Below are positions 9,666 to 42,020 of a DNA stretch of 64,000 nucleotides, one piece after another. The DNA lies in the NCBI GenBank assembly GCA_943356485.1, contig CALRFD010000005.1, positions 32,103-96,102 of the forward strand, in the 5' to 3' direction. Position numbers and translations under genes: made by a program. The stretch's first letter is position 1, and every line of letters begins with the position of its first letter. The notes beneath the pieces are model-generated. The model was not told the origin of the DNA, did no database searches, and was given only the letters and a program-made list of their open reading frames with translations. The DNA is from Patescibacteria group bacterium (GTDB taxonomy: Bacteria; Patescibacteriota; Microgenomatia; Daviesbacterales; UBA10151).

Positions 9666-9666
9666 T

Positions 9667-21125: not shown

Positions 21126-22195
21126 ATAAAGAGCAACCTTTAGTCACCGTATTAGTACTGACTTATAACAGATGCGATCTGCTTAAAAACTGTTTGGATA
21201 GCGTTTTAGCGTCTGATTATCCTAATCTAGAATTTATTGTTTCCGATAATGGTTCAACTGAGGACATAGAAGGTTTTGTTAAAGAAAATTATTCTAAAAA
21301 AGTGATTAACCAGTTGATACAAGTTGTTAGATTAAAACAAAATAAAGGATTAACCGGAGGTTTTAACTACGGATACAAGTTTTGCAAAGGCAAATACATA
21401 ATGATTTTAAGTAACGATACTAGACTTAAAAAAGATGCAATTTCAAAGATGGTAGAAATGGTTGAAAGTGATCCGACAATTGGAATTATTTCCCCTAAAA
21501 TAATTCAGATGAAGGATCCTCTACATTTTCATCATGCAGGAAGTTTTATAACTTTTTCAGGTCTTTTGTACCACTACGGGTTGCTGCAAGATATAAATGA
21601 TAAAAAATATCAGAAAAGCTACTATGTTTTTAGCTGTAACGGGGCGGGTTTTTTAATACGTAAAGAAGCGGCGGAGAGTTGTGGTTTATTTGAAGAGGAT
21701 TTTTATATTTATTATGAGGAGAGTGATTTGTCCCATAGAATCTGGTTAGCAGGATATAGCATTGTTTATTGTCCTAGCGCTTACCTTTGGCATCTTTGGG
21801 GAGCAACAATGGGAGCAGGACCTGAGATCTGGTACTATAATCATAGAAACCATATAAGCTCTTTTATTAGAAATTTGTCCCTACCTTACCTTTTTTTAAT
21901 GCTTTTAAATTTTAATTTATTGCTTATATTTTGGTTTATTTTGTATTCTTTGCAGTTAAGGTTTGATATAAGTATTGCACTTCCTAAAGCTTACCTTTGG
22001 CACTTAATGCATATTAAACAAACACTAAGAAAAAGAAAATTTATACAAAATAAGATTAGAAAAGTATCAGATAAAGAAATCTTTGAAAAAACTTTAGTAT
22101 CCCCGGGTTGGAGATATTATTTTATACACTTAAAGCTAGCTTACCAGGATATTGAGTTACCCAAAAGAGTATTATATCTGGAGAAAAAGAAATGA
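21122..22195 (+). CDS. GT2 glycosyltransferase
   Basis: It carries VTVLVLTYNRCDLLKNCLDSV...FIVSDNGSTED and a hydrophobic C-terminal segment. ATGA overlaps occur at both ends. Confidence 0.8.
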   Translation: MNKEQPLVTVLVLTYNRCDLLKNCLDSVLASDYPNLEFIVSDNGSTEDIEGFVKENYSKKVINQLIQVVRLKQNKGLTGGFNYGYKFCKGKYIMILSNDTRLKKDAISKMVEMVESDPTIGIISPKIIQMKDPLHFHHAGSFITFSGLLYHYGLLQDINDKKYQKSYYVFSCNGAGFLIRKEAAESCGLFEEDFYIYYEESDLSHRIWLAGYSIVYCPSAYLWHLWGATMGAGPEIWYYNHRNHISSFIRNLSLPYLFLMLLNFNLLLIFWFILYSLQLRFDISIALPKAYLWHLMHIKQTLRKRKFIQNKIRKVSDKEIFEKTLVSPGWRYYFIHLKLAYQDIELPKRVLYLEKKK

Positions 22196-24333
22196 AATCA
22201 ATTACCCGGGATTTAATAATTTTAACCAGCCTTTGTTTAATACTGGTATTTTTATGGTTTTCAAAAGGGTTAATTTTTGCCGGAGGAGAGGAAGGAATTC
22301 CTTTTTATGATTTAAATAAAACTACAGAATTTGTTTCATATTCCTGGCAGGATGTTTCAGCAGGTTACCCAACGCAGCTTCTTTTAAATAGAATTCCTTA
22401 TTTTAATTTTCTAAAGCTTTTTTATCTGATGGGTTTTCCCGGATTCTTATCACAAGCCTTGCACTTTTTCCTTATTATGAGTTTTGGTGCCATCTCTTTT
22501 TATTTTTTACTCAGAGAGACGATACAAAAAGAATTGGCTGTAAAAGATGAAGCTTTTAAATTAGTATCTTTAATCGGTGCTATTTTTTATTTACTTAATC
22601 CTTTTTCAATGACTCAAATTTGGGGGAGGGGACTTTATTTGCAATTTTTCCCCTTTGCTTTATTCCCGTTTTTTTTATTAATGTTTATATTAGGTCTTAA
22701 GGGCAAAAATTTTATCTATGGTTTGCTGGGTTTGTTTGCATCAGTTTTTTTTGCGGGGTCTTTTGGTAATCCTACTTATATTTTCTCTTTATGGATCCTT
22801 ATTTTTATCTACCTTTCTACTTACCTGTTCATTAATCGAAATAAAAAAGAAGCAATATTTGCTATTGGTTACTTCTTATTTATGATGATTGGTTGGTTAA
22901 TAGTTCAAATTTGGTGGATCTATCCTTTTCTTAAAATTTCATCAAACCAATTTAGTTCTGCTTTGAATAATTGGGATGAAAATATAGGAACCCTGAAAGG
23001 GATTAGTAAAGACTATAAAATATACAGTCTTCTAAGATTGATTCATGAAGGCTATTATTTTAGAGATCAGATGTATGGAAGTATATATTTGTCAATCCCG
23101 TTTTTTTTACTGAGCTGGATAATTCCAGTTGCCTCAGCTTTTTCTTATAAAATTCTTAAAAGAAGTAAGTTCTTTTTATTTTTTGCCGGGTTGTTTATAT
23201 TTTCTTTATTTATCTGTTCAGGTTCTAACTTACCTGCTGGTAAGCTGTTTATTTTTATATTCAGAATTTTTCCTCCCTTCCAGGCTTTCAGAAATCCTTT
23301 TGAGAAATTTGGTCTGGTTTTAACTTTGGCCTATGCGCCTTTTTTTGCAATAGGAAGCATAGTTTTATCGCAATATTTAAATAAAATATCTAAAAAATTT
23401 GGACAGAAATTATATTTATCGGGAATATTATTTTTAGTTTTTGGAGTTTTTCTCTGGCCTTTTTGGGTTGGTCAGTTTGCAGGAGGAGTTAAAATCAGCC
23501 CCTGGATTAAAGTGCCGGAATATTACAAACAAGCGGATGATTGGTTAAGCAGGCAGGGGGATGATGGAAGGATAATACATCTTCCGATAAATCCGGGTGA
23601 TGGATTGCGGTATAGCGGTTGGGATTATCCTTATCAGGGGATAGAGCCGGGGGAATATATATTCAGCAGGCCTTCTATCGGTAAAAATGGTCAGCAGTTT
23701 AAGCTTTACTACAACGTGTTGTTGCAAAGATTTAATAATTTTCATAAAGGATCCTATGGTTCTGATCCGGATATAACAAATTCTGAGTTTAAAAGTAAAG
23801 AGTTATTTGAAGAATTAGCAAAGTTAAACGTAAGATATATTATTTTACACCGTGATATTAATCCGGAGATTGGACAAGTCGGTTCCTTTGAAAATGTGGT
23901 TTCTTATTTGCAAAATCAAAAAAATATTAAGAAGATTAATACTTTTGGTAAACTTGATTTATACAAAGTGGAAATACCTGATGAAATTCATTTAATTTAT
24001 TCACCCAGTGTTGATTTGAAATATTCCAAAATTAACTCAACTTTATATAAAATTAATTTTCATAATGTTAAGAATCAGTTTAGCCTATTCTTCTTAGAAA
24101 ATTTCGATCCTAATTGGGAAATAAGTATTGATGGTCAAAAAATTGAAAATCATGAAAGAATATTTTCTTATGCTAATAGCTGGAAAATAAAAAAAGTAGG
24201 CACTTTTTCAGCTGTTTTAAGATATAAGCCACAGGATTATATGAATGAGGGAATGAACATAACGAAAACAGCAGTATTACTTGGAGTTTTTATCTGTGCC
24301 GGTTATTTTTTAAACAAAGGAGTTAGGAAATGA
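22192..24333 (+). CDS. Large polytopic membrane protein, GT-C-like (YfhO/AftD-like architecture); smallest member of the 4-gene paralogous family
   Basis: The N-terminus has GGEEGIPFYD (compare GGGDVGLPSYD in the paralogs). Other shared motifs are NPFSMTQIWGRG (compare NPYMMIQIWHRF), FRNPFEKFG and IIHLPI, plus a C-terminal TM anchor. It is 713 aa and directly follows a GT2 gene. Confidence 0.5.
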   Translation: MKSITRDLIILTSLCLILVFLWFSKGLIFAGGEEGIPFYDLNKTTEFVSYSWQDVSAGYPTQLLLNRIPYFNFLKLFYLMGFPGFLSQALHFFLIMSFGAISFYFLLRETIQKELAVKDEAFKLVSLIGAIFYLLNPFSMTQIWGRGLYLQFFPFALFPFFLLMFILGLKGKNFIYGLLGLFASVFFAGSFGNPTYIFSLWILIFIYLSTYLFINRNKKEAIFAIGYFLFMMIGWLIVQIWWIYPFLKISSNQFSSALNNWDENIGTLKGISKDYKIYSLLRLIHEGYYFRDQMYGSIYLSIPFFLLSWIIPVASAFSYKILKRSKFFLFFAGLFIFSLFICSGSNLPAGKLFIFIFRIFPPFQAFRNPFEKFGLVLTLAYAPFFAIGSIVLSQYLNKISKKFGQKLYLSGILFLVFGVFLWPFWVGQFAGGVKISPWIKVPEYYKQADDWLSRQGDDGRIIHLPINPGDGLRYSGWDYPYQGIEPGEYIFSRPSIGKNGQQFKLYYNVLLQRFNNFHKGSYGSDPDITNSEFKSKELFEELAKLNVRYIILHRDINPEIGQVGSFENVVSYLQNQKNIKKINTFGKLDLYKVEIPDEIHLIYSPSVDLKYSKINSTLYKINFHNVKNQFSLFFLENFDPNWEISIDGQKIENHERIFSYANSWKIKKVGTFSAVLRYKPQDYMNEGMNITKTAVLLGVFICAGYFLNKGVRK

Positions 24334-25511
24334 ATTTCATAATTATTGCAATGACAGCCCAAGGGGAAGGGATTTCCGGTTGTGATCGGATCTCTGTTGA
24401 ACTTTCTAAAAGATGGAGTAAGCAGTATCCACTGACTGTTTATTTATGGGAAGAAGGTTACAAGATGTATAAAAGACAACATTTAAGTGATAAGGAAGTA
24501 GAGTTTAAGATAATTGATATGAATCCCTGGAAAAAGATGGGATTTTTTATTAACTATATTGCTGTTATTCTTTCCTCCATTGTTTTTGCCCTAAATCTTA
24601 AATTAAAAGACGCGAAGGAAACTATAGTTTACTCTGCTTCTGAATTTTGGATGGATTCTTTGCCCGGTCTAATTTTGAAAATCAGATTTCCAAGAATTAC
24701 CTGGGTTGCTACCTGGTTTCAAACAGCACCTGATCCGCTGACTGGTTTTAAGGAAGGAGACAGGGCTCTTTCTTACAGGCTGCATGCTTTGCCATATTGG
24801 TTTGTGCAGTTACCGATAAAACCTCTTATTAAAAAATTTGCCAGTCTTGTTTTGGTCAATAACGAGTTTGAAAAAAAAGAATTTCCCCAGATGGATAAAG
24901 AGCAAAAAGTGAAAGTAGTTTTGGGAGCAGTTGATTTAACCTTAATTAGTAAATTTGCCCGGAGGTTTAAAAACGAAAAAAAGATTTTTGACGGAGTTTT
25001 CCAGGGGCGCTTTCACCCACAAAAAGGAGTAGTGGAATTAATAGATATTTGGAAGTTAGTAGTTAGTAAAAAGCCGGATGCAAAACTGGCTTTAATTGGT
25101 GACGGTCCACTTATGGCGGATGTTAAAGAAAAAATAATTAACTTAAATTTACAAAAAAATATTGAACTTTTTGGTTATGTATTTGATGGGTTTAAGAAAT
25201 ACAAAATATTTTCCCAAAGCAAAATAGTATTGCATCCGGCCTTTTATGATTCGGGCGGAATGGCTGCTGCTGAGGCTATGGCTTTGGGTCTCCCGGCAAT
25301 TGGCTTTGACCTGACATCTTATAGGTCTTACTATCCTAAAGGAATGGTAAAAGTTCCTGTTAATGATTTATTGAATTTTGCCCAAACCGTGCTTGATTTA
25401 TTAAAGGATAAAAAATTATACTCAAAAATAGCAAAAGAGTCACGCGAGATGATTTTTAAAAATTGGTCCTGGGATAAAAGAGCAAAAGAAATATTGGAAT
25501 ATATTAAATAG
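24330..25511 (+). CDS. GT4 (GT-B fold) glycosyltransferase
   Basis: The C-terminal domain has GGMAAAEAMALGLPAIGFD, an EX7E-like donor-binding motif. It is 393 aa. Confidence 0.75.
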   Translation: MNFIIIAMTAQGEGISGCDRISVELSKRWSKQYPLTVYLWEEGYKMYKRQHLSDKEVEFKIIDMNPWKKMGFFINYIAVILSSIVFALNLKLKDAKETIVYSASEFWMDSLPGLILKIRFPRITWVATWFQTAPDPLTGFKEGDRALSYRLHALPYWFVQLPIKPLIKKFASLVLVNNEFEKKEFPQMDKEQKVKVVLGAVDLTLISKFARRFKNEKKIFDGVFQGRFHPQKGVVELIDIWKLVVSKKPDAKLALIGDGPLMADVKEKIINLNLQKNIELFGYVFDGFKKYKIFSQSKIVLHPAFYDSGGMAAAEAMALGLPAIGFDLTSYRSYYPKGMVKVPVNDLLNFAQTVLDLLKDKKLYSKIAKESREMIFKNWSWDKRAKEILEYIK

Positions 25512-25512
25512 T

Positions 25513-26415
25513 ATGAAAACAGGAGTATCAATAGTTATACCCAGCTTTAACGGCAAAAAATTTATTTTTAGGTTGTTAAATTCTATCAAAGAGCTAAATT
25601 ACCAAAATATAGAAACTATTGTTGTAGATAATGGGTCAAAAGACAAGACTTTAGCAGAAGGGCAAAAGAGATATAAATGGGTAAGATGGGTTGATGGCGG
25701 AGAGGAAAATATCGGGCAAACAGGTTGTTATAACCTGGGTTTTGCTTACGCTAAAAAAAACAATCATATTCTTTATTGCGACGCAGATGTGGTCTTGGAA
25801 AAAAATATGGTTAGTAAGCTAGTGGAAAAAATAGAATCAGATGATAAAATCGGCGTTGTAACTCCGATGATCCTTTATTTATCAGATAAAAATTGGGTGA
25901 ATCAGGCAGGGGCAAATGTTGATTTAATAACAGGCAGAGTAAAGGTGGGTTGGGGGCCAAAAGAGAATTTTTTAAAAGCTAAGGTTGTACAAAATTCAGG
26001 TACGGTAATGTTATTTAAAAATTCTGTAGTTAAAAAAATAGGCGGTATGGAGGATTGGTTTATGTGTTATTTTGATCCGGATTATTGTTTAAGAGCCAAA
26101 AAGGCGGGTTTTGACACCTGGTATGTACCTGAGGCAATAGCCTTTCATGACCAGTCAAAAGATCCCAAAGTTTGGCGACCAAGAGTTTTAGGCAGGGCGT
26201 ATCTTTTAGGCAGAAACAGAGTGTTGTTTATAAGAAAACACGGTAATATCTTTACCTTTTCAATCTTTTTACCATTGCTTTTAGCTTATTACTTAATTGA
26301 GGCGATAAGATTTGGGCAGTTTGGAAATTTTTTTGAACTTTTTTGGGGGAGTATTGTAGGTTATTTTTATCCTTTAAATTCCGGCTTGTACATTCCTTTA
26401 CCAAAAATTAAATAA
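25513..26415 (+). CDS. GT2 glycosyltransferase
   Basis: It carries VSIVIPSFNGKKFI...IVVDNGSKDKT and DAD. Confidence 0.8.
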   Translation: MKTGVSIVIPSFNGKKFIFRLLNSIKELNYQNIETIVVDNGSKDKTLAEGQKRYKWVRWVDGGEENIGQTGCYNLGFAYAKKNNHILYCDADVVLEKNMVSKLVEKIESDDKIGVVTPMILYLSDKNWVNQAGANVDLITGRVKVGWGPKENFLKAKVVQNSGTVMLFKNSVVKKIGGMEDWFMCYFDPDYCLRAKKAGFDTWYVPEAIAFHDQSKDPKVWRPRVLGRAYLLGRNRVLFIRKHGNIFTFSIFLPLLLAYYLIEAIRFGQFGNFFELFWGSIVGYFYPLNSGLYIPLPKIK

Positions 26416-26572
26416 CTGTTGTAGTTAAATTTTCATTTACCAAAAAATTAAGTTCAAAATTGGGGATTTAATTTTTCTGTAAAATGATATATTAATAGAT
26501 CTGCTTAAATTATGAAGTGTATTCCAATAAAGCTTCACTATATAATACAGCGGGAAGATTTGGTTTCATTTA

Positions 26573-28810
26573 ATGAAAGATAAAAAATTAGTATCAGTAG
26601 TTATCGTAAGCAGGGATCGGAAGAAAGATCTTACAGAGTGTATTGAATCTTATCTTAACTCCTCATACAAAAATATTGAGGTTATTGTTGTTGATAATGC
26701 TTCCAGGCAGCCAATTTCAGATTGGGTTAGAAAGAAGTACCCTAAAGTAAAAATCATCACCAGTGATAGTAATTTAGGGGCAGCAGAAGGTAGGAATATG
26801 GGTCTTGATGTATCAAAAGGAGACTATATTATTTTCACTGATGATGATGCTTATGCTGATAAAAATATGACAAGGTATTTAGTGGAGGCTTTTGAAAAAA
26901 AGAATGATGCAGGAATTATTCAGCCCTTAGTTTACGACAAACAGGAAAAGAGTACTTTGCAAGGAGCCGGCCATGATATAGATTTGACAACAGGTAGAAT
27001 CAAAGCATGGGGGGTAAAAGAGGAAGATCAGGGTCAATATGAAGGGTTGCGGGAAGTACCGATGTGTGGTTGTGTTTGGATGGTAAAGAGGGAGGTTTTT
27101 AATAAAATTGGCGATTATGATAAGGAGTACTTTATTCCTTATGAGGATTCTGATTTTTCCATTAGGGCAAGGAAAGCAGGTTATAAACTTTATTGTTATT
27201 CACTGGCCAAAAGTTGGCATCAGGGAGTAAAGAAAACCTATATACACCCCTGGATTGAGTGGTTAGGTATCACCTCTTCGATCAGGGCGTATAGAGTAGC
27301 CAGAAATAAAATAATTTTTATGGCAAAGCATTCAGAGTATCCTTCAAATGTCCTTTTTTTTAGCATATTCCTGCCTATCTATATAATTTCGCATTCTTTA
27401 ATAATCATAGCTGCAGGTAAATTTCAGCTATTAAGCTATTATTTAAAAGGAGTTTTTTCGGGTTTAACATATCTGCTTAAAAAGATTTTTAATAGTTTGA
27501 CTTTATTAATTTTAGCCTGGAGTGATCCTCTACCCTGGGTAATTGATAGATCAGCCAAAAGTATATTGGACATAGGTTGTGGGGAAGGTCTGCCTATGAG
27601 GTTAATTAAAAAAAGGATGAAGGTGGAGAGCTCAACAGGGGTTGATTTATTTGAGCCTTATATTAAAAAAGCAAGAAATATACAAACTCACGGCAGTTAC
27701 GAGTTACAGGATATAAGAAAATTAAACTATGGTAGAGAGTCCTTTGATGTTGTAATCGCCTCTCATGTTTTAGAACATTTACCTAAAGAAGAAGCTTTAA
27801 TGGTATTAGAGAAATTAGAGCGGATTGCAAAGAAACAAATTATCATAGCAGCTCCTATTGGTGAAATGTATCATCCGGAGGTGGATGGTAATAAGTTACA
27901 GCTGCATTTATCTGAATTTGAACCGGAAGAATTCGAAAAACGTAATTACCGGATAATAAGATACGGGTGGAAATGGTTGTTGGGCGAGAAAGGTTTAATT
28001 AATAAATATCCTAATATTTTTATTCGAAAGTTAATTTTTATCATCCATTTATTATCAACCCCCCTATTTTACATATTTACTGATATTGGAACATATACCT
28101 TTGTGGCATATAAAACAAAGCCCAAAAAGGAAAATCATGACTTGTTAGTAGATAAACCCAGTAGGCTAAAAATATTTTTAATGTCTCTAACAGATCCTCT
28201 TCCACATGTTGTCGATAAAACTGCCAGGTCAATCTTGGATTTAGGTAGTGGTCAGGGAAAGCCCATGGCAATGATTAAATTTTGGAGAAAGATTGAAAAA
28301 GCAGTTGGAGTAGAGTTATACAGACCTTATATCGACCAGGCTAAACAGCTAGGCTTATATGATCAGTATCTACTTGAGGATGTCAGAAAAATAAATTTTC
28401 CGCCTAAATCTTTTGATATTGTGATGGCCTCTCACGTTTTAGAACATTTATCTCAAAAAGAGGGCTGGGTACTGCTTTCCAGGATGGAGAAAATTGCCAA
28501 AAAACAGGTTATTATTGCAACTCCAATTGGAGAAATTTATCAGCCTATGTTTGATAAGAATATATTACAAGAACATAAGTCTTATTTTTTGCCGGAGCAA
28601 TTTATCAAACGTGGTTATAAAGTTATTAAATATGGAGCAAGATGGATTTTGGATGAACATTCCAATAGTCTAGTATATCAAGCTAGAAACCCTTATTTGA
28701 AAAAATTAGTCTATATCTTTAATTATTTGATTACTCCGCTTTATTACTTTTTTCCGGAGATCTGTGATTATTCATTTGTTGCCTACAAAAATATGACAGA
28801 TGAAAGTTAA
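26573..28810 (+). CDS. Trifunctional fusion: GT2 glycosyltransferase + membrane segment + two tandem class I SAM-methyltransferase domains
   Basis: The N-terminus has the GT2 signature VSVVIVSRDRKKDL...VIVVDNASRQ. Mid-protein TM helices follow. Two repeated units each carry DPLP(W/H)V(I/V)D(R/K)(S/T)A(K/R)SILD(I/L)G(C/S)G(E/Q)G motif I and ASHVLEHL...IAKKQ(I/V)IIA(A/T)PIGE. Confidence 0.75.
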   Translation: MKDKKLVSVVIVSRDRKKDLTECIESYLNSSYKNIEVIVVDNASRQPISDWVRKKYPKVKIITSDSNLGAAEGRNMGLDVSKGDYIIFTDDDAYADKNMTRYLVEAFEKKNDAGIIQPLVYDKQEKSTLQGAGHDIDLTTGRIKAWGVKEEDQGQYEGLREVPMCGCVWMVKREVFNKIGDYDKEYFIPYEDSDFSIRARKAGYKLYCYSLAKSWHQGVKKTYIHPWIEWLGITSSIRAYRVARNKIIFMAKHSEYPSNVLFFSIFLPIYIISHSLIIIAAGKFQLLSYYLKGVFSGLTYLLKKIFNSLTLLILAWSDPLPWVIDRSAKSILDIGCGEGLPMRLIKKRMKVESSTGVDLFEPYIKKARNIQTHGSYELQDIRKLNYGRESFDVVIASHVLEHLPKEEALMVLEKLERIAKKQIIIAAPIGEMYHPEVDGNKLQLHLSEFEPEEFEKRNYRIIRYGWKWLLGEKGLINKYPNIFIRKLIFIIHLLSTPLFYIFTDIGTYTFVAYKTKPKKENHDLLVDKPSRLKIFLMSLTDPLPHVVDKTARSILDLGSGQGKPMAMIKFWRKIEKAVGVELYRPYIDQAKQLGLYDQYLLEDVRKINFPPKSFDIVMASHVLEHLSQKEGWVLLSRMEKIAKKQVIIATPIGEIYQPMFDKNILQEHKSYFLPEQFIKRGYKVIKYGARWILDEHSNSLVYQARNPYLKKLVYIFNYLITPLYYFFPEICDYSFVAYKNMTDES

Positions 28811-31800
28811 AGGTTTAATACCAATATTCCTGATATTTATACTGTCCACAGTTCTTATATTCACCTGGTTTCAAGAAGGGTATATGTATGGAGGCGGCGA
28901 CGTGGGTTTACCTTCATATGATCCAGCCCGTACCCTGGAAAAATCAGAGCATATTTGGTGGGAGGCTTCTGCTCCCGGTACAACAGTTCCACAAGGTTTG
29001 ACCTCTGTTCCTTTTCAGGTTTTACAGTCTTTTTTGCACAATATCGGTTTATCACCGGTGATGATACAGGCTTTTGTCTTCTGGAGCCTGCTCTTTTTGA
29101 TGGGTATTGGGATGTATTTTTTAGCCTTAGGGGTGTTTGAAGAAAACTTTCTTTTGGCAACAGTAGCAGCATTATTTTATATGTTCAATCCATATATGAT
29201 GATTCAAATTTGGCACAGATTTATTCATAATACAATCTTTTTGGCTGCTGTTCTTCCCTTTATATATATTTTCTGGAAAAGTTGGATTAAAACAGGTAAT
29301 TATACAAAATTATTTTTATACATACTGACAAATTTGCTGGGGGTTTATCTTTTCGGAACAATTGCTTTTATTGCCACAATTTTTATTTTAATAAGTTTTA
29401 TTTCCCTGATTGAAATCTTATTTCCCTGGCAAGGTTGGAAAAAATTTCGGATGGTTTCTAAGAGATCTATTCTAGGTATAATATTTTGGTCTTTAGCTAA
29501 TATTTGGTGGTTGTGGCCGGTATTAACGATTGCACCGGCCAGCTTATCCTTGCAGCACTCAATTGGAGAAAGCTTAGGCACCCTGCTTGCAATCAGCAGA
29601 CAAGCCATAATACCCTACAGCCTTTTAGGTATAAATTCCTTTTATCTTTATGATAAGGCGGATTGGGGGGATATATATAATAACTACTTTTTCAGGATCT
29701 TGCCCTGGCTGTCTTTATTTTTTTTAATTCCAGGTTTTATTAAAGGTTTAACAAATAGAAATTGGTTATCCTGGTCGTTACTTTTAATCTTAGGGTTATT
29801 TTTAGCCAAGGGCGCGGCAGCCCCTTTTGGTTATATCTATATTTGGGGGTTTAATCATTTTTTTGCTTTGGGAGCTTTAAGAAATCCTTTTGAAAAATTG
29901 GGTATTTTATTGCCTTTTTCTTCCGCTATTTTAATAACAATAGGTATTGATTGGTATTTAGCTAAGTTTAAGAGTCGATTGAAGATAATGATTAGGACAG
30001 GGATTTGTTTAATAATGGTACTGCTTTTGATAGTTAATCTTTGGCCAATGTGGCTTGGAAAAATATTCGGTACCCTGGAAAAACCCGGTTTTGTGGAAGT
30101 ACCTTCAGTCTATAAAGCGGCGGATAATTTCATAAAAAATCAGAGTAAAGACGGTAAAATTTTACACCTGCCACTCACAAGCGGTGAATCTATTACTTAT
30201 AACTGGCCACATGGTTATCATGGCGTTGAACCTTCTCAATTACTTTTTAAATCATTGCCCTCTGTCTCCCATGGATTCAATATTAATCCGGTTGATGATA
30301 GCTTAAATGCGCTGTCTTATATTTTCTTATTATCGGATTCTGAGGATAAGATAATTTCTATTCTGCAGTCATTTAATATTAAGTTTATTGTTTTACATAA
30401 AGATATAGAATGGCATGGAGGAGATTTAGAAGATCCTCAAAAGCTGGAAAAGCGCTTGGATGAATTTGATTTTCTTGAAAATAAAACTCAATTTGGAGAT
30501 TTGATTGTTTATAGATTGAAAGATATGTATTTTTATTCCAGGCTTAGGCTAACTAATAACATTTCCTATTTTATTTCATCTGAAAATAATATTTATTGGC
30601 CATGGTTACTCTCTTCTAATAAATCAGATCTAATTTCATCTCTGCAAAAAAAGAAAGACGATCTACTTATTAAACTTGGAACCGAAATGATTATTCCTCC
30701 CGACCATGTTTATAAATATAGTCCTCAAAAGATCGTTAAAGAAAATATAATAGGGGAAATGCCGGCTGCTAAAGTTTTACCGGACTCCCCCCTCTATCTC
30801 TTTATAAGAATTAAAGAGATGGTTCAATATTTTAGTCTACCCATTAATGATAAATTTTCTTTTAAGCTAACTTTAGCTGGTAAGAGATTAGTAGAGAGTT
30901 ATCTGATTAAAGAAAAAAAATCATCTTTATTAATTACTCCTCAACTTCAAGAATATCAACGAATCTTGACAGAAATTAGGGATGGGGTTTATGCACGGAG
31001 TAATGGAGATGAAGGGAGTAAGGAACTTTCTATTAATTTTATATTATCTCATCATTTAACCACTTTAGAACTTATTAAACAAAAGACTGTCGGTAAAGAG
31101 ATGAAGATAGTTGAATCAACCATAACGCAGTTAACTAATTTAATGAAAGAGGCAAATATTACTCCCTACAACCAACTCATTGAGAGAGAAAATTTACCCT
31201 CTGTTGGCAGATTAATTTCCAAATTTAACCTGCCTATTTCCGGCAAATATGAACTACTTCAGGCTAATGAACAAAGCCAGGGTATTTATCCAAATGGATT
31301 AGGGACTAATGATTTTCAGATTAATAATACGGTTTCGAACTTAAATGGAAAAGCTGCAGGAAATTTTATCTCCTTTGGGACGGTTAATTTAGAGGAAGGA
31401 TTAAGTGAAATAAGCTTTAATTCGATTCCATCTATAGATTTATCTACAATTAACAGAACTTCCAGAAAAGGGGATGTTAAGGAGTCGGGTGATGGAATTG
31501 AAGTAACCTCCAGTGAACACGATTCAAGTTATGTTGACTTAAATATCGATCCGATTCACGGCGGTAATTGGTATCAGCTTAGCTTTGATGCCTGGTTTAA
31601 ACTGGGGGATACCTTCAAGATACAAATAATGCAGGACACAGATCCTTATGACTCTGAAAAACCGGGTGAAAAGATACCCTCCTATGACAATGATTTTCAT
31701 AGGGATGCTTATATAAATGACTGGAATAATAACGTATTTAATTTCTATGTTAATCCGACTACGAGTAAAGTTGTAATTAGATTCCTGGTTATACCCTGGG

Positions 31801-32285
31801 ATGGCTGCAAATACTTTCTGATCTCAAAGACAGTCTGTTCCAATAAATTAGTTAAATACATTTATGAGAAATCCAGTAAGATCTCCTTTCGGAATATCAG
31901 TGTAATTAGGCCTTTAAGCAATCCTATTTTTCTAAAATCAGAAACTGCTTTCGCTCCTCAAAAAAATGAAGGTACGGTTAAATACACTCAAAATAGTGTT
32001 ACTTCATATTCGGGAAGTATAAGCCTAAGCTCTCCGGCCTTCTTAATATTTAGTGAGACATATCATCCGGGCTGGAAGTTGGAGCTTTTTAATCCAGATA
32101 AGTCTACAGTTTTGCAAAGATTTGTAGCTAATAATTATAGTAATGCCTGGTACATCGACCATCCTGGAAATTATACTTTTAAGCTTGAATTTACTCCTGA
32201 GAGGAAAGTAATTGTTGGTTTAATAATTAGCGGCTTAAGCATTTTGGGTTTACTAATTATTGTTATTAAGAAAATAAGACCATGA
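28800..32285 (+). CDS. Giant polytopic membrane protein (1161 aa), GT-C-like N-terminal domain + large extracytoplasmic domain + C-terminal TM anchor (YfhO/AftD-like architecture)
   Basis: Conserved motifs are GGGDVGLPSYDP, IWWEASAPGT, NPYMMIQIWHRF, RNPFEKLG and KILHLPLT. The C-terminus carries SETYHPGWKL...NAWYI...LEF-P followed by a TM helix. It overlaps the upstream fusion gene by 11 bp. Confidence 0.5.
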   Translation: MKVKGLIPIFLIFILSTVLIFTWFQEGYMYGGGDVGLPSYDPARTLEKSEHIWWEASAPGTTVPQGLTSVPFQVLQSFLHNIGLSPVMIQAFVFWSLLFLMGIGMYFLALGVFEENFLLATVAALFYMFNPYMMIQIWHRFIHNTIFLAAVLPFIYIFWKSWIKTGNYTKLFLYILTNLLGVYLFGTIAFIATIFILISFISLIEILFPWQGWKKFRMVSKRSILGIIFWSLANIWWLWPVLTIAPASLSLQHSIGESLGTLLAISRQAIIPYSLLGINSFYLYDKADWGDIYNNYFFRILPWLSLFFLIPGFIKGLTNRNWLSWSLLLILGLFLAKGAAAPFGYIYIWGFNHFFALGALRNPFEKLGILLPFSSAILITIGIDWYLAKFKSRLKIMIRTGICLIMVLLLIVNLWPMWLGKIFGTLEKPGFVEVPSVYKAADNFIKNQSKDGKILHLPLTSGESITYNWPHGYHGVEPSQLLFKSLPSVSHGFNINPVDDSLNALSYIFLLSDSEDKIISILQSFNIKFIVLHKDIEWHGGDLEDPQKLEKRLDEFDFLENKTQFGDLIVYRLKDMYFYSRLRLTNNISYFISSENNIYWPWLLSSNKSDLISSLQKKKDDLLIKLGTEMIIPPDHVYKYSPQKIVKENIIGEMPAAKVLPDSPLYLFIRIKEMVQYFSLPINDKFSFKLTLAGKRLVESYLIKEKKSSLLITPQLQEYQRILTEIRDGVYARSNGDEGSKELSINFILSHHLTTLELIKQKTVGKEMKIVESTITQLTNLMKEANITPYNQLIERENLPSVGRLISKFNLPISGKYELLQANEQSQGIYPNGLGTNDFQINNTVSNLNGKAAGNFISFGTVNLEEGLSEISFNSIPSIDLSTINRTSRKGDVKESGDGIEVTSSEHDSSYVDLNIDPIHGGNWYQLSFDAWFKLGDTFKIQIMQDTDPYDSEKPGEKIPSYDNDFHRDAYINDWNNNVFNFYVNPTTSKVVIRFLVIPWDGCKYFLISKTVCSNKLVKYIYEKSSKISFRNISVIRPLSNPIFLKSETAFAPQKNEGTVKYTQNSVTSYSGSISLSSPAFLIFSETYHPGWKLELFNPDKSTVLQRFVANNYSNAWYIDHPGNYTFKLEFTPERKVIVGLIISGLSILGLLIIVIKKIRP

Positions 32286-32638
32286 TTATAAATCTTAAAA
32301 AAAATCGTGATACGCTAATTAAAATACTAATTCAATTTATTTTTATCTTTCCAGTGATTTTTTTCTTAAATGCAGGTTCGCTAACAGATACATATTGGAA
32401 AGTTGCCCAATCAGTTATTTTAACCGTTGTATTTATCGCTGGATTAAGCCGGCCACAGCTAAAAAAGAATATTTTTTTATTGGGTTTATATTTAATTATC
32501 ATAATGGTGATCCTGTATGTGTTTGGTTTAGTTGATTCAGCTGATTTAGCAGGAAGTAGCGGAGTAGGAATAATAACGATGAATCTATTAACCTATCTTC
32601 CTGAATTAATAAACTTGGGTTATATTAAGAAGATATAA
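32282..32638 (+). CDS. Small 3-4 TM membrane protein, partner of the upstream giant membrane protein
   Basis: It is 118 aa and hydrophobic. It is a paralog of 36084..36413, sharing the tail LTYLPELINLGYIKK versus LSYLPDLVRIGFVKDK. There is a 4-bp overlap with the upstream gene. Confidence 0.45.
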   Translation: MIINLKKNRDTLIKILIQFIFIFPVIFFLNAGSLTDTYWKVAQSVILTVVFIAGLSRPQLKKNIFLLGLYLIIIMVILYVFGLVDSADLAGSSGVGIITMNLLTYLPELINLGYIKKI

Positions 32639-32646
32639 TCTAAGTA

Positions 32647-35600: not shown

Positions 35601-36075
35601 AGTAAGATTTTTAGCATCCTCTCCCGATGGCGGAAATCTGGTTTCTTCTTCTATGCTAATCAGAAATCTGCAGGTTAGAAGGTTTTCTGATGAGGAAGTC
35701 TTCCTGCAGGATTTTGGGAAAACCGAACCGGATATGCCATCATCCGGTCACATTTCGATAAACCAAAAAACACCTACCTTTTATGAAGGACGGATACAAA
35801 TAAGTGAACCGGCATTTGTTATTTTTAGTGAGAGCTATCATCCTGGTTGGAAATTAAGTTTGCAAAAAGAAAATAAGGAATATATTTCTAATACTCATTT
35901 TCTGGCTAATTTGTATGCTAATGCCTGGTATATAAATGAAGCAGGTAATTATAACTTTAAGCTTGAGTTTGAACCTCAGAATATAGTTAATTATGGATTT
36001 ATTATAGCTATAATAAGTTATATAGCATTAGTGTTGTATTCCCTAATTGTTAGCTTTAAAAAAGAGAAAGTATAA
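32647..36075 (+). CDS. Giant polytopic membrane protein (1142 aa), paralog of 28800..32285
   Basis: It shares the same motif set (GGGDVGLQVYNP, IWWEATGPGS, NPYMMIQVWHRF, RNPFEKMG, KILHLPLT, SESYHPGWKL...NAWYI) and a C-terminal TM helix. Confidence 0.5.
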   Translation: MKSINIFKNNFPQFFIFLLVSLFLTISWFRSGYIYGGGDVGLQVYNPIRILELVSYIWWEATGPGSPTPQGLTALPFNYFFSGLKLIGFSPLMLQSTLFFLILFAMGTGMYLLILFLFNENHKKYALLAGLFYIFNPYMMIQVWHRFVHSTFFISAALPFLMIYWLKWVRNRKPQSLLIFLIINLISLYGFGTIAYILTLWSFLLLITIPEIIFPWGGLKNARRVSLLFFVGFLFWILTNIWWLLPIFKIAPSFLSEQHSNEQTLATIYTLGYQTVLPYSLQMINPFYLFSQLDFGSSYLHIFLRIIPWIFVAVIFVGIIKGLFNPKSAKWSIVYLLVLVLSKGVASPFGYFYVLGMKYFFPLGVLRNPFEKMGVLLPVVSSIVLVIGTKIIFDFFKVKTNIKLANLVLLTAFGLIFSFCWPMFTGQIFGKFDKPEFVDVPKSYSEADQWIKADYSSDLHQNPGKILHLPLTKGESIDYSWEHGYSGLESSALFFTSAPSISHGFNLAQVDNALTSLYQAFHKSFVSPDTILRLLNDFNVKYIVLHKDVKLQGGEFYDPKQTEEKLNSLEYLTPPKRFGDLVIYKISDKFFRPKISLTNKFVLLSPPDNPSLWPWILAGDRTLITDLSKNGEIEKASNAFIFPKKSFSYEEASPSSAISLINQLLINPNYDNLWLSSLLNLKTIYRANNEIQGEQLNDKLISASKKILKIARSIFVDNKIFSLSELDDYAEEMKQILSSNSAVLSFYAKDKTISNIFQVHLYLLKAIAKKTPVGGNSAARAADDLKKNLVSNNFISENYAEGEIPVLFEKTVLKFEIPKDSNYELLLTHSSKENLYQERYEKMVVLVDGKLNNLTLNKKENVTSLGVFFLSKGTHEIDLPIRYSDNLLSNKQEDVKIESIKDKLGYFEDKISYVTGQDRYKVSFSAKVEKGSGFYIQLVQDTDSRGSNNQVNYQVNEFISQPSGQDFRDYSFPLPDLRLTTKDAAVRFLASSPDGGNLVSSSMLIRNLQVRRFSDEEVFLQDFGKTEPDMPSSGHISINQKTPTFYEGRIQISEPAFVIFSESYHPGWKLSLQKENKEYISNTHFLANLYANAWYINEAGNYNFKLEFEPQNIVNYGFIIAIISYIALVLYSLIVSFKKEKV

Positions 36076-36083
36076 AAGTCACT

Positions 36084-36413
36084 ATGAATAAAATAGTTAT
36101 TAAATTTTTTATATCAACTATATCAATTGCTTTTTTTTGGGGACTTGAATCAGGTTTTACACAGAGAAACGGGTATGAGTTAATAAAATCTATAATTTTT
36201 GCCTCTTCTTTTTTTATAGTTTTAACTAAAAAGTATAAACAATATATTCTTTGGATATCTACTTTCCTATTGATCAGTATGATTATTCTATACTTACTTT
36301 GGCAAATACAACTCTCTGATTTATTAGGAAGTATTGGATTCGGTATGTTTTTTATATTTATCTTAAGCTATTTGCCCGATTTAGTAAGGATTGGGTTTGT
36401 TAAAGATAAGTGA
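36084..36413 (+). CDS. Small 3-4 TM membrane protein, partner of the upstream giant membrane protein (paralog of 32282..32638)
   Basis: It is 109 aa and hydrophobic, with a conserved C-terminal LSYLPDLVRIGFVKDK. It occupies the same position relative to its giant gene, 8 bp downstream. Confidence 0.45.
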   Translation: MNKIVIKFFISTISIAFFWGLESGFTQRNGYELIKSIIFASSFFIVLTKKYKQYILWISTFLLISMIILYLLWQIQLSDLLGSIGFGMFFIFILSYLPDLVRIGFVKDK

Positions 36414-36570
36414 AATTGTATGTATATTTTAAGATATCTTTCTATTTTTAGTTTTTTGATATTGGATTTATTAATTATTACCGGGCATTTTGGTCTGGTT
36501 AATAAATCAGTGAATTTTGTTTTTATTTTAATTGTCATTAATGTAGTTTTTTATCTTTTAGAAATAAAGA

Positions 36571-39252
36571 ATGAATAAGTTTACCTTGGTTTTTATTTTT
36601 ATATTTGCTATTTTGTTTTGGGTTTTCTGGCTGCCTGGCCCCAGGGTTGCAACAGATTATTATTTAAGCACAAGCGAAATAGTTAAAGATTATACTTTTC
36701 CTTGGGGCTGGAGGGAGAATTCATCAGATGGATTAGGGACGTATACAGTCGGAACTTTATGGTCTCAACCGATACATCTTTTATCAAGAATTCTGCTGGA
36801 GCTTAATATATCTGTTGTTTGGATTACCAAGATTTTACTCATATTATTTCTAGCGGCAGGATTTTTTTCTATAAAAAGGCTACTGGGTTATCTGCAAATA
36901 AAGGGAATGGCAAAATATACAGGGGTTTTATTTTATTTACTTAACACGTATTTCTTGCTTTTGATAGATGGGGGACAGCTTTCTTTAGCCTTTGTGTATT
37001 GTTTAGTTCCTCTTTGTATATATTTTTATCTTAAGACAATGAGTGAGCAGAGCACTAAGAATAGATTAAATTTTATAGCCTCCCTTCTTACGGTTTCATT
37101 TTTAGATATAAGGTTTGTTTTTTTATTATTTTTAATCTTTTTTATTCACATTTTATTCAGTATGGCAAAAACTACTAAAAACACAAAATTAAAATTATTT
37201 AAAAATATTTTCATAACGGGAATATTAACAGTAATATTTTTAATCCTCGCCCATATATATTGGATTTTACCAACATTTTTTTCGCATAGCATTCAATTAC
37301 CTCAAACATATGAAAGAAGCTCGCAGGTAGATTTTTTAAGTTGGTCTTCCTTAGCCCATTCTTTATTTATGCAGCAGCCTCATTGGTACAAGAATATATT
37401 CGGAAATATTTCTAATGTAGGATTAGAGTTTTCAATGATTCCAATATTAGTATTTTTAACGATTATATTAAAAAGAAAGGATAAGGTTGTTGGGTTTTGG
37501 TTAATCATAGCCATTCTAGGAATATTTTTGAGTAAAGGTTCGAAAGAGCCATTCGGAGGGATTTACACTTGGGCATTTACTAATATTCCGGGGTTTTCTT
37601 TATTCAGAGATCCGGTTAAGTTTTATCTGCTAACAGCCCTTTCTTATAGCATCTTAATATCTATTTCAATAAGTGAGATTTCAAAGTTTGATACCAGCAA
37701 AAAATTTATTAATCGGCTTGTCAAACTTATCCCAATTCTTACATTAGTATATTTAATCCTGTTAGCTTGGCCGCTTTATTTTAAGCAGATGACAGGAATG
37801 TTTTCTGAACCAAGTTATGAACAGGAGTTTTTTCAACAGTCGGAAATCTTATCCAAGGACTTCGGCTTTTCCAGAATAGTTTGGATACCAGTTCAGAAAC
37901 CTCTTGGTTTTGCCAGCACCAACCATCCTTCAATCGGGGCGATAAGATTATCCCAAAAGCGGCCGTTTGAGGTAGGTATAACAGGTACCTATGAAACGCT
38001 TAATTTTTTAAGAGATACACCTTTTATGGGAGAGATTTTTGATATTGCAGGTATTGGTTATATTAATTATCCCTATCTTGATGTTAAAAGGGATGAGATG
38101 AGTTTTGATAATAGAAAATACTTTTATACATTTTTAAATCAGCTATCGAAACTTTCCTGGCTTGAAAAAGTACCAGAGTCAAAAATCCCTCTTTTTAAAA
38201 CTACCCATCATCAAGATAGATTTTTTATTGCGCCAAATGTTTGGTGGGTAATAGGGTCAGATAAAATTTATAATGAAGCAACTAAGAGTTCCAATCTAAA
38301 ACTTGCTAACAATGCTTTGATTTTCTCAGAAGAGTACTCAGGGTTAGGGGCGGAAATTAGTAATCTGCCAAATGTAAAGATTATCCTGCAAAATAAAACA
38401 GCCATTGACCTTGCAGCTTCATTTATACAGAAAACTTTAATTTTTCCAGCAAAGCAATTAAAGTTTGATCCGGATCTAAATTCCGGATGGTGGAAAAGGG
38501 AGGCCTCAGATTTGATTAATTGGAGGGATTTTTTGCAGTCTAAGTACGGTATTAATAACCAGGATTTTGATTTAGGCGGAGGATGGGCGGTTGGCGAAGG
38601 AAATAAACAGTTGAAAATTGAAGTTTCCAAAAAAGGAAAAGAGTCTTTGAGAGAAGGAAATGTTTTATTAGCTAGGGTAATGGAGAGCACCAGAAGCGGT
38701 TCATTAAGCTTTTATCAGGATGATCAGTTAATAGGAACTCTAAATACTGAAAAAGAAGGCAATAATATCAGGTGGTTTGAAATAGGCCAGTTACGTAAAT
38801 CAGACGGACAACTGAGGATTCTATCGTTTGGGGATATTAATGTAGTTAATGCCTTAGCAATTTTAGACGCTAAAGACTGGCAGGTATTAAAAAATAAAGC
38901 TGTTTTGCTTAAGGGTAGGATTATGGATTTTAATGAAATGAATGCAAGCAGTTCTGGCGTTCCTAAAATTTCTTACCAGAAAATAAATCCGACTAAATAT
39001 GTTGTTAATATTAATGGTTTAACAAAAAGCTCTCTTTTAATATTTTCCCAAAATTACGACAGATCCTGGAAAATTAATAATCAGGAACCGCTACCTATAT
39101 ATAGTTTGCTAAACGGATTTGCTGTAAATACAGATGGCCGCTATGTTATCGAATTTGAACCTCAAAAATATATTAATTTAGGGTTAATTATTTCTATATT
39201 CACAATGAGTATCCTGATTCTTCTCATAATTAAATACAGCAAACAACGGTGA
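36571..39252 (+). CDS. Large polytopic membrane protein (893 aa), divergent member of the giant GT-C-like family
   Basis: It has the same architecture: an N-terminal multi-TM domain, a soluble domain and a C-terminal TM helix. Related motifs are FSLFRDPVKF (compare RNPFEKLG) and the C-terminal FSQNYDRSWKI...EFEPQ (compare SETYHPGWKL...LEFTPE). Confidence 0.45.
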   Translation: MNKFTLVFIFIFAILFWVFWLPGPRVATDYYLSTSEIVKDYTFPWGWRENSSDGLGTYTVGTLWSQPIHLLSRILLELNISVVWITKILLILFLAAGFFSIKRLLGYLQIKGMAKYTGVLFYLLNTYFLLLIDGGQLSLAFVYCLVPLCIYFYLKTMSEQSTKNRLNFIASLLTVSFLDIRFVFLLFLIFFIHILFSMAKTTKNTKLKLFKNIFITGILTVIFLILAHIYWILPTFFSHSIQLPQTYERSSQVDFLSWSSLAHSLFMQQPHWYKNIFGNISNVGLEFSMIPILVFLTIILKRKDKVVGFWLIIAILGIFLSKGSKEPFGGIYTWAFTNIPGFSLFRDPVKFYLLTALSYSILISISISEISKFDTSKKFINRLVKLIPILTLVYLILLAWPLYFKQMTGMFSEPSYEQEFFQQSEILSKDFGFSRIVWIPVQKPLGFASTNHPSIGAIRLSQKRPFEVGITGTYETLNFLRDTPFMGEIFDIAGIGYINYPYLDVKRDEMSFDNRKYFYTFLNQLSKLSWLEKVPESKIPLFKTTHHQDRFFIAPNVWWVIGSDKIYNEATKSSNLKLANNALIFSEEYSGLGAEISNLPNVKIILQNKTAIDLAASFIQKTLIFPAKQLKFDPDLNSGWWKREASDLINWRDFLQSKYGINNQDFDLGGGWAVGEGNKQLKIEVSKKGKESLREGNVLLARVMESTRSGSLSFYQDDQLIGTLNTEKEGNNIRWFEIGQLRKSDGQLRILSFGDINVVNALAILDAKDWQVLKNKAVLLKGRIMDFNEMNASSSGVPKISYQKINPTKYVVNINGLTKSSLLIFSQNYDRSWKINNQEPLPIYSLLNGFAVNTDGRYVIEFEPQKYINLGLIISIFTMSILILLIIKYSKQR

Positions 39253-41348: not shown

Positions 41349-42020
41349 TTGGAATCAATGAGTCAAGCTGTTTGGTATAACAGATGGGTTGAAGGGCAAT
41401 TTTATAAATATCTTTCCGGGAATATCCTAGAAGTCGGTTGTGGTATAGCTAACTTTAGTCAATATCTGTCTAAATATGGAAAATTAACCGCGATAGATAT
41501 AAATAGAGAATATATAAAGCAGGCAAAAAAGAAAGCGGGTATAGATGTAAGAGTAGGATTTGGGGATATTGAGAATGGCCAATATTTTTTTAAAGAACGA
41601 AATTTCAATACTGTTGTTTGTATCAATGTCCTGGAACATATAAATAATGATAAAAAGGCTCTAAAAAATATTGCGGAGTTGTTATTACCAAAAGGCTATT
41701 TGGTTTTGCTTGTCCCGGCTGGTAAATTTCTCTATAATCTAATAGATAGGTCAATCGGTCATTTCCGGCGTTACGAAAAAAATGAACTTTTGCTGCAGTT
41801 AGAGGAAGCAGATTTTGAGATAGTTAAATCAAAAAGGCTAAACTTCTTAGGGGCTTTGGGTTGGTTTATTTCCGGTAGGGTATTTAAAGACAGTAGTGTT
41901 GGTGAAGGGAAGATTAGAATATTTAATTTAATTGCCCCCTTATTTTTAAAGATTGAAAGTATAATTGAGCCGCCCGTTGGGACTTCAATATTAATCATAG
42001 CCAGAAAGAAAGAGAAATGA
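41349..42020 (+). CDS. Class I SAM-dependent methyltransferase
   Basis: It carries motif I ILEVGCGIANFS and NVLEHI...LLPKGYLVL. Confidence 0.75.
   Translation: MESMSQAVWYNRWVEGQFYKYLSGNILEVGCGIANFSQYLSKYGKLTAIDINREYIKQAKKKAGIDVRVGFGDIENGQYFFKERNFNTVVCINVLEHINNDKKALKNIAELLLPKGYLVLLVPAGKFLYNLIDRSIGHFRRYEKNELLLQLEEADFEIVKSKRLNFLGALGWFISGRVFKDSSVGEGKIRIFNLIAPLFLKIESIIEPPVGTSILIIARKKEK

Follow-up and report, generated by a model that had tools for sequence, protein, structure and literature searches.

Four paralogous AftD-like GT-C membrane proteins in a glycan-biosynthesis island of a patescibacterium

Four related proteins and their link to AftD

Four large open reading frames (ORFs), here called P1 to P4, are located on the forward strand of a 64-kb stretch of contig CALRFD010000005.1 (assembly GCA_943356485.1) from an uncultivated, Daviesbacteria-like member of the Patescibacteria group; the whole stretch is referred to as the window and has a G+C content of about 33%. 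A first-pass annotation made from the DNA letters had described their products as a four-member paralogous family of polytopic membrane proteins with YfhO/AftD-like architecture of the glycosyltransferase C (GT-C) type, and its coordinates and lengths match all four ORFs exactly (Table 1). That they are paralogs is clear, the similarities being much greater than expected by chance: P2 and P3 share 37% identity along their entire length, P1 is 29% identical to the first 594 residues of P2 (E 4e-56) and also has the C-terminal block in common with it, and P4 gives a weak BLASTP match to P2 (25% over about 230 aa, E 3e-9), while the profiles of the P2 and P4 families align over 539 collinear columns with an hhalign probability of 99.9% (E 2e-33). 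Furthermore, when hidden Markov models built for each family from its own homologs are run against the 66 window ORFs of 80 aa or more, P1–P4 are the only matches. Within the family P4 is the divergent one, tied in by profile comparison and by its predicted fold. In public collections the four proteins were found nameless, and their homologs come overwhelmingly from metagenome-assembled genomes (MAGs) of Candidatus Daviesbacteria, Microgenomates and Patescibacteria. Since proteins of the P2 and P3 types fall into distinct orthologous groups, both represented on the same contigs in other genomes, the duplication that gave rise to them is old. A few close homologs are labeled “Nanoarchaeota archaeon” or “Actinobacteria bacterium”; all of these are MAG contigs, and mis-binning seems likelier than real transfer.

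The sequence motifs that had been ascribed to all four proteins were checked by regular expression on P1–P4, and the claim holds for P2 and P3, mostly for P1, but hardly at all for P4. The motif GGG[DE][VE]G.P.YD is present as written in P2 only and in a relaxed form in P1–P3, and both the NP(Y/F)(M/S)M... motif and (F/L)RNPFEK(L/M/F)G are found in P1–P3. IWWEA-x-PG as written is present in none of the four proteins; the real gap is two residues, and in this form the motif occurs in P2 and P3 only. The same two proteins are the only ones to carry KI(L/I)HLP (RIIHLP in P1, RIVWIP in P4) and the C-terminal SE(T/S)YHPGWKL / NAWYI / LEF-P block, whereas a relaxed core, (F/Y)(D/H)(P/R)xW(K/E)(L/I), is common to all four. 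P4 is devoid of almost the entire set and has none of the motifs in unmodified form, its counterparts being ATD29YY, NTYFLLLIDGGQ, FRDPVKF and YDRSWKI.

The AftD half of the “YfhO/AftD-like” assignment is supported by Pfam, by profile comparison and by the predicted fold, but the YfhO half is not: none of the four proteins matches YfhO (Pfam PF09586) at E ≤ 1, and membership in the YfhO family was rejected on this basis. By contrast, P1 and P2 reach 43.3 and 30.3 bits with Pfam PF11847 (GT-C_AftD, formerly DUF3367), for which the gathering cut-off is 26 bits. Precomputed annotations assign the same family to nearly all homologs of the P1 type and to many of the P2 type, and some homologs carry the NCBI name “alpha-(1->3)-arabinofuranosyltransferase family protein.” P3 and P4 are tied to PF11847 only via P1 and P2, and P4 additionally via its predicted fold. 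Because an existing Pfam family covers P1–P3 and some homologs have already been named by NCBI, the earlier suggestion of a new GT-C subfamily was overstated for these three proteins; only the P4 type is unrecognized by current libraries, being not yet captured by Pfam or NCBIfam. Among the six proteins searched against NCBIfam (P1–P4 and the small neighboring proteins S2 and S3 described below), none gave a usable family. The four large proteins are therefore best described as a divergent branch of a known family in the candidate phyla radiation (CPR), and not as a new GT-C family or enzyme class.

Searches with single sequences (phmmer with P1, P2 and P4 against PDB sequences) returned nothing, and the P2-family profile retrieved only noise from the PDB, namely coiled-coil and transmembrane (TM) proteins. 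With the P1-family profile AftD (6w98_A) was the top match, albeit a weak one (E 0.034). The AftD fragment from this PDB profile match was used to fetch actinobacterial aftD loci, from which an AftD alignment was built; the best of these loci reproduces the published numbering (K39, D41). When compared with this bona fide actinobacterial AftD profile, the P1 family aligns collinearly over 527 columns (hhalign 95.5%, E 1.5e-8), while the match of the P2 family is marginal (44%, E 2.4e-4). In addition, hhalign matches the C-terminal block to the stretch ESxNPGW...NGWQQGW...TLTF of AftD that directly precedes TM12 (76%, E 2.3e-5), and W1092 and F1127 within this block of P2 are invariant in the family.

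The link to AftD is also seen at the level of the predicted structures. AlphaFold2 (AF2) models were obtained for P2 (predicted local distance difference test, pLDDT, 86.3; predicted template modeling score, pTM, 0.80) and for P4 (pLDDT 89.7, pTM 0.86), and a Foldseek search of the PDB placed AftD (6w98_A) first in both cases, with E 2.8e-15 and a TM-score on the query of 0.49 for P2, followed by STT3, DPY19 and PglB, and with E 4.3e-11 and a TM-score on the query of 0.53 for P4, followed by STT3, ALG9 and PglB. All other strong structural matches of the two models are likewise GT-C enzymes. The models thus predict a GT-C fold with an 11-helix core, for which AftD is the closest solved structure. 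The P2 model comprises the 11 core helices, helices in external loop (EL) 1, a TM3 that is kinked at NPYMM, a long EL4 between TM7 and TM8, and an EL5 between TM9 and TM10 that carries RNPFEK; this helix count and loop layout is the one described for AftD.

Topology, domain architecture and conserved residues

The topology of all four proteins was derived from hydropathy and the positive-inside rule, and for P2 and P4 also from the secondary structure of the AF2 models. In each protein about 11 helices at the N-terminus are followed by a soluble domain and a single helix at the C-terminus, which bears out the arrangement of multi-TM N-terminus, soluble domain and C-terminal anchor that had been proposed earlier. 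The size of 500 to 700 aa given for the soluble domains needs correction, however, since they measure 257, 709, 684 and 460 aa in P1 to P4, respectively. The N-terminus is predicted to lie inside the cell and the short loops rich in lysine and arginine (K/R) in the cytoplasm. The acidic loop 1 contains few K/R and alternates with these short loops, and is therefore predicted to face the outside, as are the TM7–8 loop, the TM9–10 loop and the large domain. The first-pass annotation had named two results that would speak against a GT-C enzyme, namely a model without structural similarity to GT-C folds and an acidic motif on the cytoplasmic side. Both points were examined and neither result was obtained, as P2 and P4 resemble GT-C folds and the loop-1 acid is predicted on the outer face, so that the GT-C interpretation as a whole is supported.

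P1 consists of the 11 TM helices, the 257-aa outside domain and the C-terminal TM helix. In P2 the 11-TM core is followed by an alpha/beta domain, a five-helix bundle (about aa 660–785, weakly DUF5667-like), beta-sandwiches that resemble carbohydrate-binding modules (CBMs; about aa 800–1000), a C-terminal beta-sandwich and TM12 (aa 1133–1159). The five-helix bundle is present in P2 and P3 only. The outside alpha/beta domain carries a mostly conserved glutamate that aligns with E475 of AftD, and the final beta-sandwich, with its PGW-type motif, directly precedes the single C-terminal helix. Carbohydrate-binding-like modules are thus part of the outside domain, as they are in AftD.

Five residues of AftD, namely K39, D41, E251, K361 and D474, have been shown to be indispensable in vivo (bioRxiv 10.1101/2019.12.22.885152). 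Conservation at the corresponding positions was assessed by counting over 39–57 homologs per family, combined with profile alignments to AftD. Loop 1 contains an invariant acid in the same segment as D37-T-K39-L-D41 of AftD, with a register that is uncertain by one to three residues: E33 in the P1 family (39/39), D34 in the P2 family (52/52 ungapped sequences) and D29 in the P4 family (57/57), the acid of P3 being D39. In all four proteins the TM9–TM10 loop contains the invariant motif R-(N/D)-x(2-3)-K, which reads R367-N368-P-F-E371-K372 in P1, RNPFEK (aa 367–372) in P3 and R346-D347-P-x-K350 in P4, while R361, N362, E365 and K366 are invariant in all 55 members of the P2 family. hhalign pairs the RN of P1 with R357-N358 of AftD, and the lysine of the motif is kept opposite K361, with a register uncertain by one residue. 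E475 of AftD, in the pair E475-P476, aligns with a glutamate in 49 of 55 members of the P2 family, 34 of 39 of the P1 family and 40 of 57 of the P4 family. The P4 family has further invariant residues, as D29, D133-G-G-Q136, D179, R181, K322, D347 and K350 are found in all 57 sequences and R346 in 56 of them. The five-residue essential set of AftD is not conserved as such (see below), and from the conservation counts and the profile alignments it therefore appears that P1–P4 keep a GT-C-like constellation of residues rather than the exact set of AftD.

The glycan island, the conserved cassette and its small proteins

Judged by its Pfam annotation, the entire 64-kb window is a glycan-biosynthesis island. 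In addition to a priming polyprenyl glycosylphosphotransferase, a Wzy_C-like protein and a Wzx-type flippase (Table 1), it encodes about 12 glycosyltransferases of families 2 and 4 (GT2 and GT4), two carbamoyltransferases, several methyltransferases (MTs), hexapeptide-repeat acetyltransferase-like proteins and sugar-nucleotide (modifying) enzymes. The two carbamoyltransferase genes suggest that the glycan is carbamoylated. Together with five PMT_2-like GT-C candidates of 466–509 aa, P1–P4 bring the number of candidate lipid-sugar-dependent transferases at the locus to at least nine. Four GT2 enzymes resemble polyprenyl-phosphate-sugar synthases, all with scores below the curated cut-offs; the one at 415–1347 matches PgfS and ArnC over the full length and the one at 42017–42715 matches AglJ and PpgS. 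The four GT2s are plausible donor suppliers for the GT-C enzymes. Three further ORFs of the window (3921–5528, 5532–7004 and 18067–19380, all on the + strand; 535, 490 and 437 aa) belong to no Pfam family and lie outside the AftD-like family.

Table 1. Positions of the features discussed in the text, numbered within the 64-kb window.
Feature	Position	Strand	Description	Basis or context
P1	22192-24333	+	713 aa; shortest AftD-like GT-C paralog	
P2	28800-32285	+	1161 aa; AftD-like GT-C	
P3	32647-36075	+	1142 aa; tandem paralog of P2, same architecture	
P4	36571-39252	+	893 aa; divergent AftD-fold paralog	
GGGDVG of P2 (aa 31-36)	28890-28907	+	D34, candidate catalytic or metal-binding acid	First outside loop
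RNPFEK of P2 (aa 361-366)	29880-29897	+	Counterpart of AftD R357-N358-V-H360-K361	TM9-TM10 loop
C-terminal block of P2 (aa 1085-1158)	32052-32273	+	SETYHPGWKL...NAWYI...LEFTP, then TM12	Aligns with AftD segment before TM12
S2	32282-32638	+	118 aa; about 4 TM helices	Start overlaps P2 stop codon by 4 nt
S3	36084-36413	+	109 aa; about 4 TM helices	Directly after P3
Micro-ORF	36420-36578	+	52 aa; 2 hydrophobic segments	Overlaps P4 start by 8 nt
Co-directional 19-gene array	17135-44223	+	Contains all four paralogs	Gene spacing, Pfam
Fusion of GT2 with two MT domains	26573-28810	+	745 aa	Directly upstream of P2, 11-nt overlap
Wzx-type flippase (Polysacc_synt)	39249-40538	+		Pfam PF01943, PF13440
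Two carbamoyltransferase genes	2170-3873, 19359-21125	+	NodU/CmcH type	
Five PMT_2-like GT-C candidates	42712-44223, 46686-48215, 49896-51350, 51301-52701, 57494-58960	+	466-509 aa	Pfam: two above cut-off, three below
GT2s resembling polyprenyl-phosphate-sugar synthases	415-1347, 42017-42715, 45362-46084, 9589-10608	- (45362-46084)	PgfS, ArnC, AglJ, PpgS, dolichyl-phosphate hexose transferase	All below curated cut-offs
Wzy_C-like protein	56056-57474			Pfam annotation
Priming polyprenyl glycosylphosphotransferase	63237-63866			Pfam annotation

All four paralogs belong to a co-directional 19-gene array. Adjacent genes in it overlap by 4–22 nt or lie 13 nt or less apart, the one exception being a gap of 157 nt. 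The array starts with a methyltransferase, an unknown ORF, a carbamoyltransferase and a GT2, followed by P1, a GT4, a GT2, the GT2-MT-MT fusion, P2, S2 and P3, and continues with S3, the micro-ORF, P4, Wzx, a GT2, a methyltransferase, a GT2 and one of the PMT_2-like GT-C candidates. A core of this order is conserved in related loci from four other genomes (L001, L082, L083 and L084), where a GT2/methyltransferase gene is followed by a P2-type gene, a small ORF, a P3-type gene, a small ORF, a P4-type gene, Wzx, a GT2 and a methyltransferase; Wzx directly follows the P4-type gene in every related locus examined. Where the window has the GT2-MT-MT fusion, a shorter fusion of GT2 and methyltransferase (518–535 aa) is found in the related loci, or a plain GT2 in the case of L082. 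The P1-type gene is more loosely associated, in that it is found with its GT4 and GT2 neighbors upstream of the cassette in two of the four related loci. The sub-module of carbamoyltransferase, GT2, P1 and GT4 is also present on L087, a contig with a protein that NCBI attributes to Candidatus Woesebacteria, and there no P2–P4 cassette is found within 8 kb downstream of the sub-module.

Each of the three cassette paralogs is accompanied by a small ORF. S2 and S3 are paralogs, with a common GS motif before the last helix and a common C-terminal (Y/F)(L/I)PxL..xG(Y/F)(I/V) motif; S3 has an LESGF motif and ends in YLPxLxxxG(Y/F)V. Orthologs of S2 occupy the same position in L001, L083 and L084, and S3 is kept after the P3-type gene in all four related loci. 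L082 therefore retains the small ORF after its P3-type gene but not after its P2-type gene, so that the first partner is not universal; at the vacant site in this locus (L082 13213–13507, Microgenomates Gr01-1014_7) only a 54-aa ORF on the opposite strand is called. The micro-ORF has homologs of 53–57 aa at the same place in L084, L082 and L001, in which G22, H23 and G25 are invariant (G-H-x-G), and is reduced to a 29-aa remnant in L083. The S2/S3 family is narrow, comprising 83 clusters in a profile search of 1.84e9 representative proteins, almost all of 104–127 aa. S2 and S3 match no Pfam or NCBIfam family, and ten of their homologs match no Pfam family above noise and do not match GtrA.

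In size and helix count S2 and S3 are similar to the GtrA-type flippases (PMC8035078). They also match the TM13–16 bundle of AftD in the number of helices and in their position after TM12. The possibility that they are the split-off C-terminal bundle of AftD was followed up with an alignment of 80 small-protein sequences, but hhalign detected no similarity to the AftD tail (E 0.28) or to AftD as a whole (E 0.7), so that this origin finds no support in the sequences. As far as the literature was searched, so tight a pairing of GT-C enzymes with small membrane proteins has not been described.

Proposed role and comparison with known systems

Taken together, P1–P4 are probably paralogous AftD-type GT-C enzymes that move a sugar from a polyprenyl-phosphate carrier to a cell-surface glycan on the outer face of the cytoplasmic membrane. 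In such a scheme polyprenyl phosphate would be charged with sugars in the cytoplasm by the ArnC-, PgfS-, AglJ- and PpgS-like GT2s of the island, and a flipping step would bring the lipid-linked sugars to the outer side of the membrane. There, each of the four proteins would add a different sugar or linkage to a polymer that leaves the cell through the island's Wzx/Wzy-type machinery. The acceptor would be held by the CBM-like modules, and P2, P3 and P4 would work in the conserved cassette with their dedicated small membrane proteins. What the analysis establishes is the paralogy, the assignment to family and fold, the predicted topology, the conserved residues and the synteny, whereas catalysis, a lipid-phosphate sugar as donor, a glycan as acceptor and the part played by the small proteins are inferred.

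Several observations weigh against this assignment. The identity of P1–P4 to AftD is as low as 9–13%, P3 scores 22.8 bits with PF11847 and thus falls below the cut-off, and P4 has no library family at all, with no Pfam match at E ≤ 1 and a comparison of its family with the bona fide AftD profile that is not significant (hhalign 18%). Of the essential AftD residues, K39 has no lysine counterpart, the position of E251 is taken by histidine in the P2 and P3 types (His253, in 53 of 55 members of the P2 family) and is variable (E/Q/D) in the P1 family, and D474 aligns with valine or isoleucine; this mapping was itself taken from low-confidence profile alignments rather than from superposition. In addition, residue 456 of P4 in the window is a glycine where 46 of 57 family members have glutamate or aspartate, which could be due to relaxed constraint in this copy or could simply be a tolerated variant. 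The functional assignment of every member is drawn from sequence and models, and a precedent exists for another use of a related protein: MmpA (NCgl2761/Rv0226c), a membrane protein that resembles the N-terminus of AftD, acts in trehalose-lipid transport and has no known catalytic domain or transferase role (PMC8698533), which by analogy indicates that proteins of this kind can serve lipid transport.

The MmpA precedent leads to an alternative in which some members, above all P4, would be non-transferase scaffolds with an AftD fold, or MmpA-like handlers of lipids or lipid-linked glycans that aid export or assembly. P4 is the obvious candidate, since it is without the motif set of P1–P3 and without a Pfam match, carries the glycine at the position aligned with E475, and has as its only library match a weak one to MmpA (NCBIfam NF053599; 36.2 bits over aa 293–430). 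This score is, however, far below the cut-off of 210 bits, the charged residues that are invariant in the P4 family are located where a GT-C active site is expected, and P4 retains the CBM-like modules, so that a purely structural or transport role appears quite unlikely. An oligosaccharyltransferase of the STT3/PglB/AglB type, which would glycosylate proteins such as an S-layer protein, could be considered because STT3, AglB and PglB come next after AftD among the structural matches and one of the island GT2s is AglJ-like. Yet a regular-expression search found the WWD(Y/W/F)G motif in none of P1–P4, and AftD came first in every search; this reading is rejected for these reasons. The 11-helix core also fits AftD, whereas the solved STT3, AglB and PglB structures have 13 helices, and the CBM-like modules suggest a glycan as acceptor, which leaves protein glycosylation very improbable.

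A closer competitor is a role as in the Gram-positive YfhO/GtlB-type systems, in which P1–P4 would decorate teichoic-acid-type polymers instead of building chains in the manner of AftD. CPR bacteria are monoderm, the island has GT2s resembling synthases of C55-P-sugars, the small proteins with about four TM helices adjoin the GT-C genes much as GtrA-type flippases do in such systems, and one distant homolog has been named “YfhO family protein” by NCBI. A C-terminal beta-sandwich followed by a TM helix is also a feature of YfhO. On the other hand, P1–P4 are without a YfhO match and the small proteins without a GtrA or any other Pfam match, and the links in sequence and structure point to AftD. 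We regard decoration as unlikely, and it would differ from the assignment as AftD-type transferases in the acceptor and in processivity only, the chemistry being the same.

A bolder extension of the assignment as AftD-type transferases concerns the small proteins. S2 and S3, translationally coupled to P2 and P3, and the micro-ORF product, coupled to P4, might be obligate membrane subunits of the GT-C enzymes, either as a detached functional counterpart of AftD TM13–16 or as subunits for the delivery of lipid-linked sugars, and the cassette P2-S-P3-S-micro-P4-Wzx would then represent an undescribed heteromeric machine for a complex branched surface polysaccharide in Daviesbacteria. This proposal is speculative and, as it stands, rather unlikely to hold in full; if true, the cassette would be the CPR functional analogue of mycobacterial arabinan assembly. 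The small membrane proteins paired with the paralogs offer a specific lead that can be put to the test. To our knowledge, almost nothing has been established experimentally about the cell envelopes of CPR/Patescibacteria. Surface glycans of CPR bacteria probably mediate attachment to the host. No paper was found that treats AftD or DUF3367 together with CPR or Patescibacteria.

In YfhO/GtlB-type systems a cytoplasmic GT2 loads polyprenyl phosphate, a small protein of 3–4 TM helices is involved, and a GT-C enzyme with extracellular carbohydrate-binding domains acts outside, an arrangement to which the locus is similar in outline. It differs in that no YfhO or GtrA family is matched, that the GT-C genes are far larger and arranged in tandem, and that the small proteins are paired one-to-one with the GT-C paralogs, whereas one flippase serves several systems in the former. 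MmpA is polytopic and AftD-N-terminus-like as well, and the weak match of P4 spans the region of the RDPxK motif; however, MmpA of C. glutamicum has 474 aa and a single small outside domain, in contrast to the 460-aa outside domain of P4 with its CBM-like modules. STT3, PglB, AglB, AftA, AftB, ArnT, Pmt and ALG all rank below AftD as matches, and the solved cores of STT3, AglB, PglB and ArnT have 13 helices, as compared with 11 in AftD.

The best structural and profile match of the P1–P4 set is AftD of the Mycobacteriales (PDB 6W98, 6WBX, 6WBY), with which the set has in common a GT-C core of 11 helices and, after it, a periplasmic alpha/beta domain and beta-sandwich CBMs, the final beta-sandwich with an (N/H)PGW motif ahead of TM12, the RN..K motif in the TM9–TM10 loop, the loop-1 acid and the glutamate aligned with E475. 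In AftD, TM12 is followed by a four-helix bundle (TM13–16), required for function, which packs onto TM8 and TM9 and to which acyl carrier protein binds. P1–P4 all terminate after TM12 and therefore do not have this bundle. Unlike AftD, P2 and P3 have an inserted five-helix bundle, four paralogs are present per locus together with small partner proteins, and the hosts are CPR bacteria, which are without arabinogalactan. The Pfam annotation of the window ORFs contains no family for the arabinofuranose donor decaprenyl-phospho-arabinose, neither of the prenyltransferase type nor of the DprE type, and the NCBI label “alpha-(1->3)-arabinofuranosyltransferase family protein” therefore probably names the sugar too specifically; nothing in the gene content appears to point to arabinofuranose as the transferred sugar. 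AftD is an essential enzyme of the mycobacterial cell wall, and distant, simpler relatives that are without the bundle for acyl carrier protein and have altered active-site positions help to separate the features of the core fold from lineage-specific ones. Daviesbacteria-like organisms commit more than 11 kb of a 64-kb glycan island to four enzymes with an AftD fold; the type of enzyme is known, the lineage and the layout are new.

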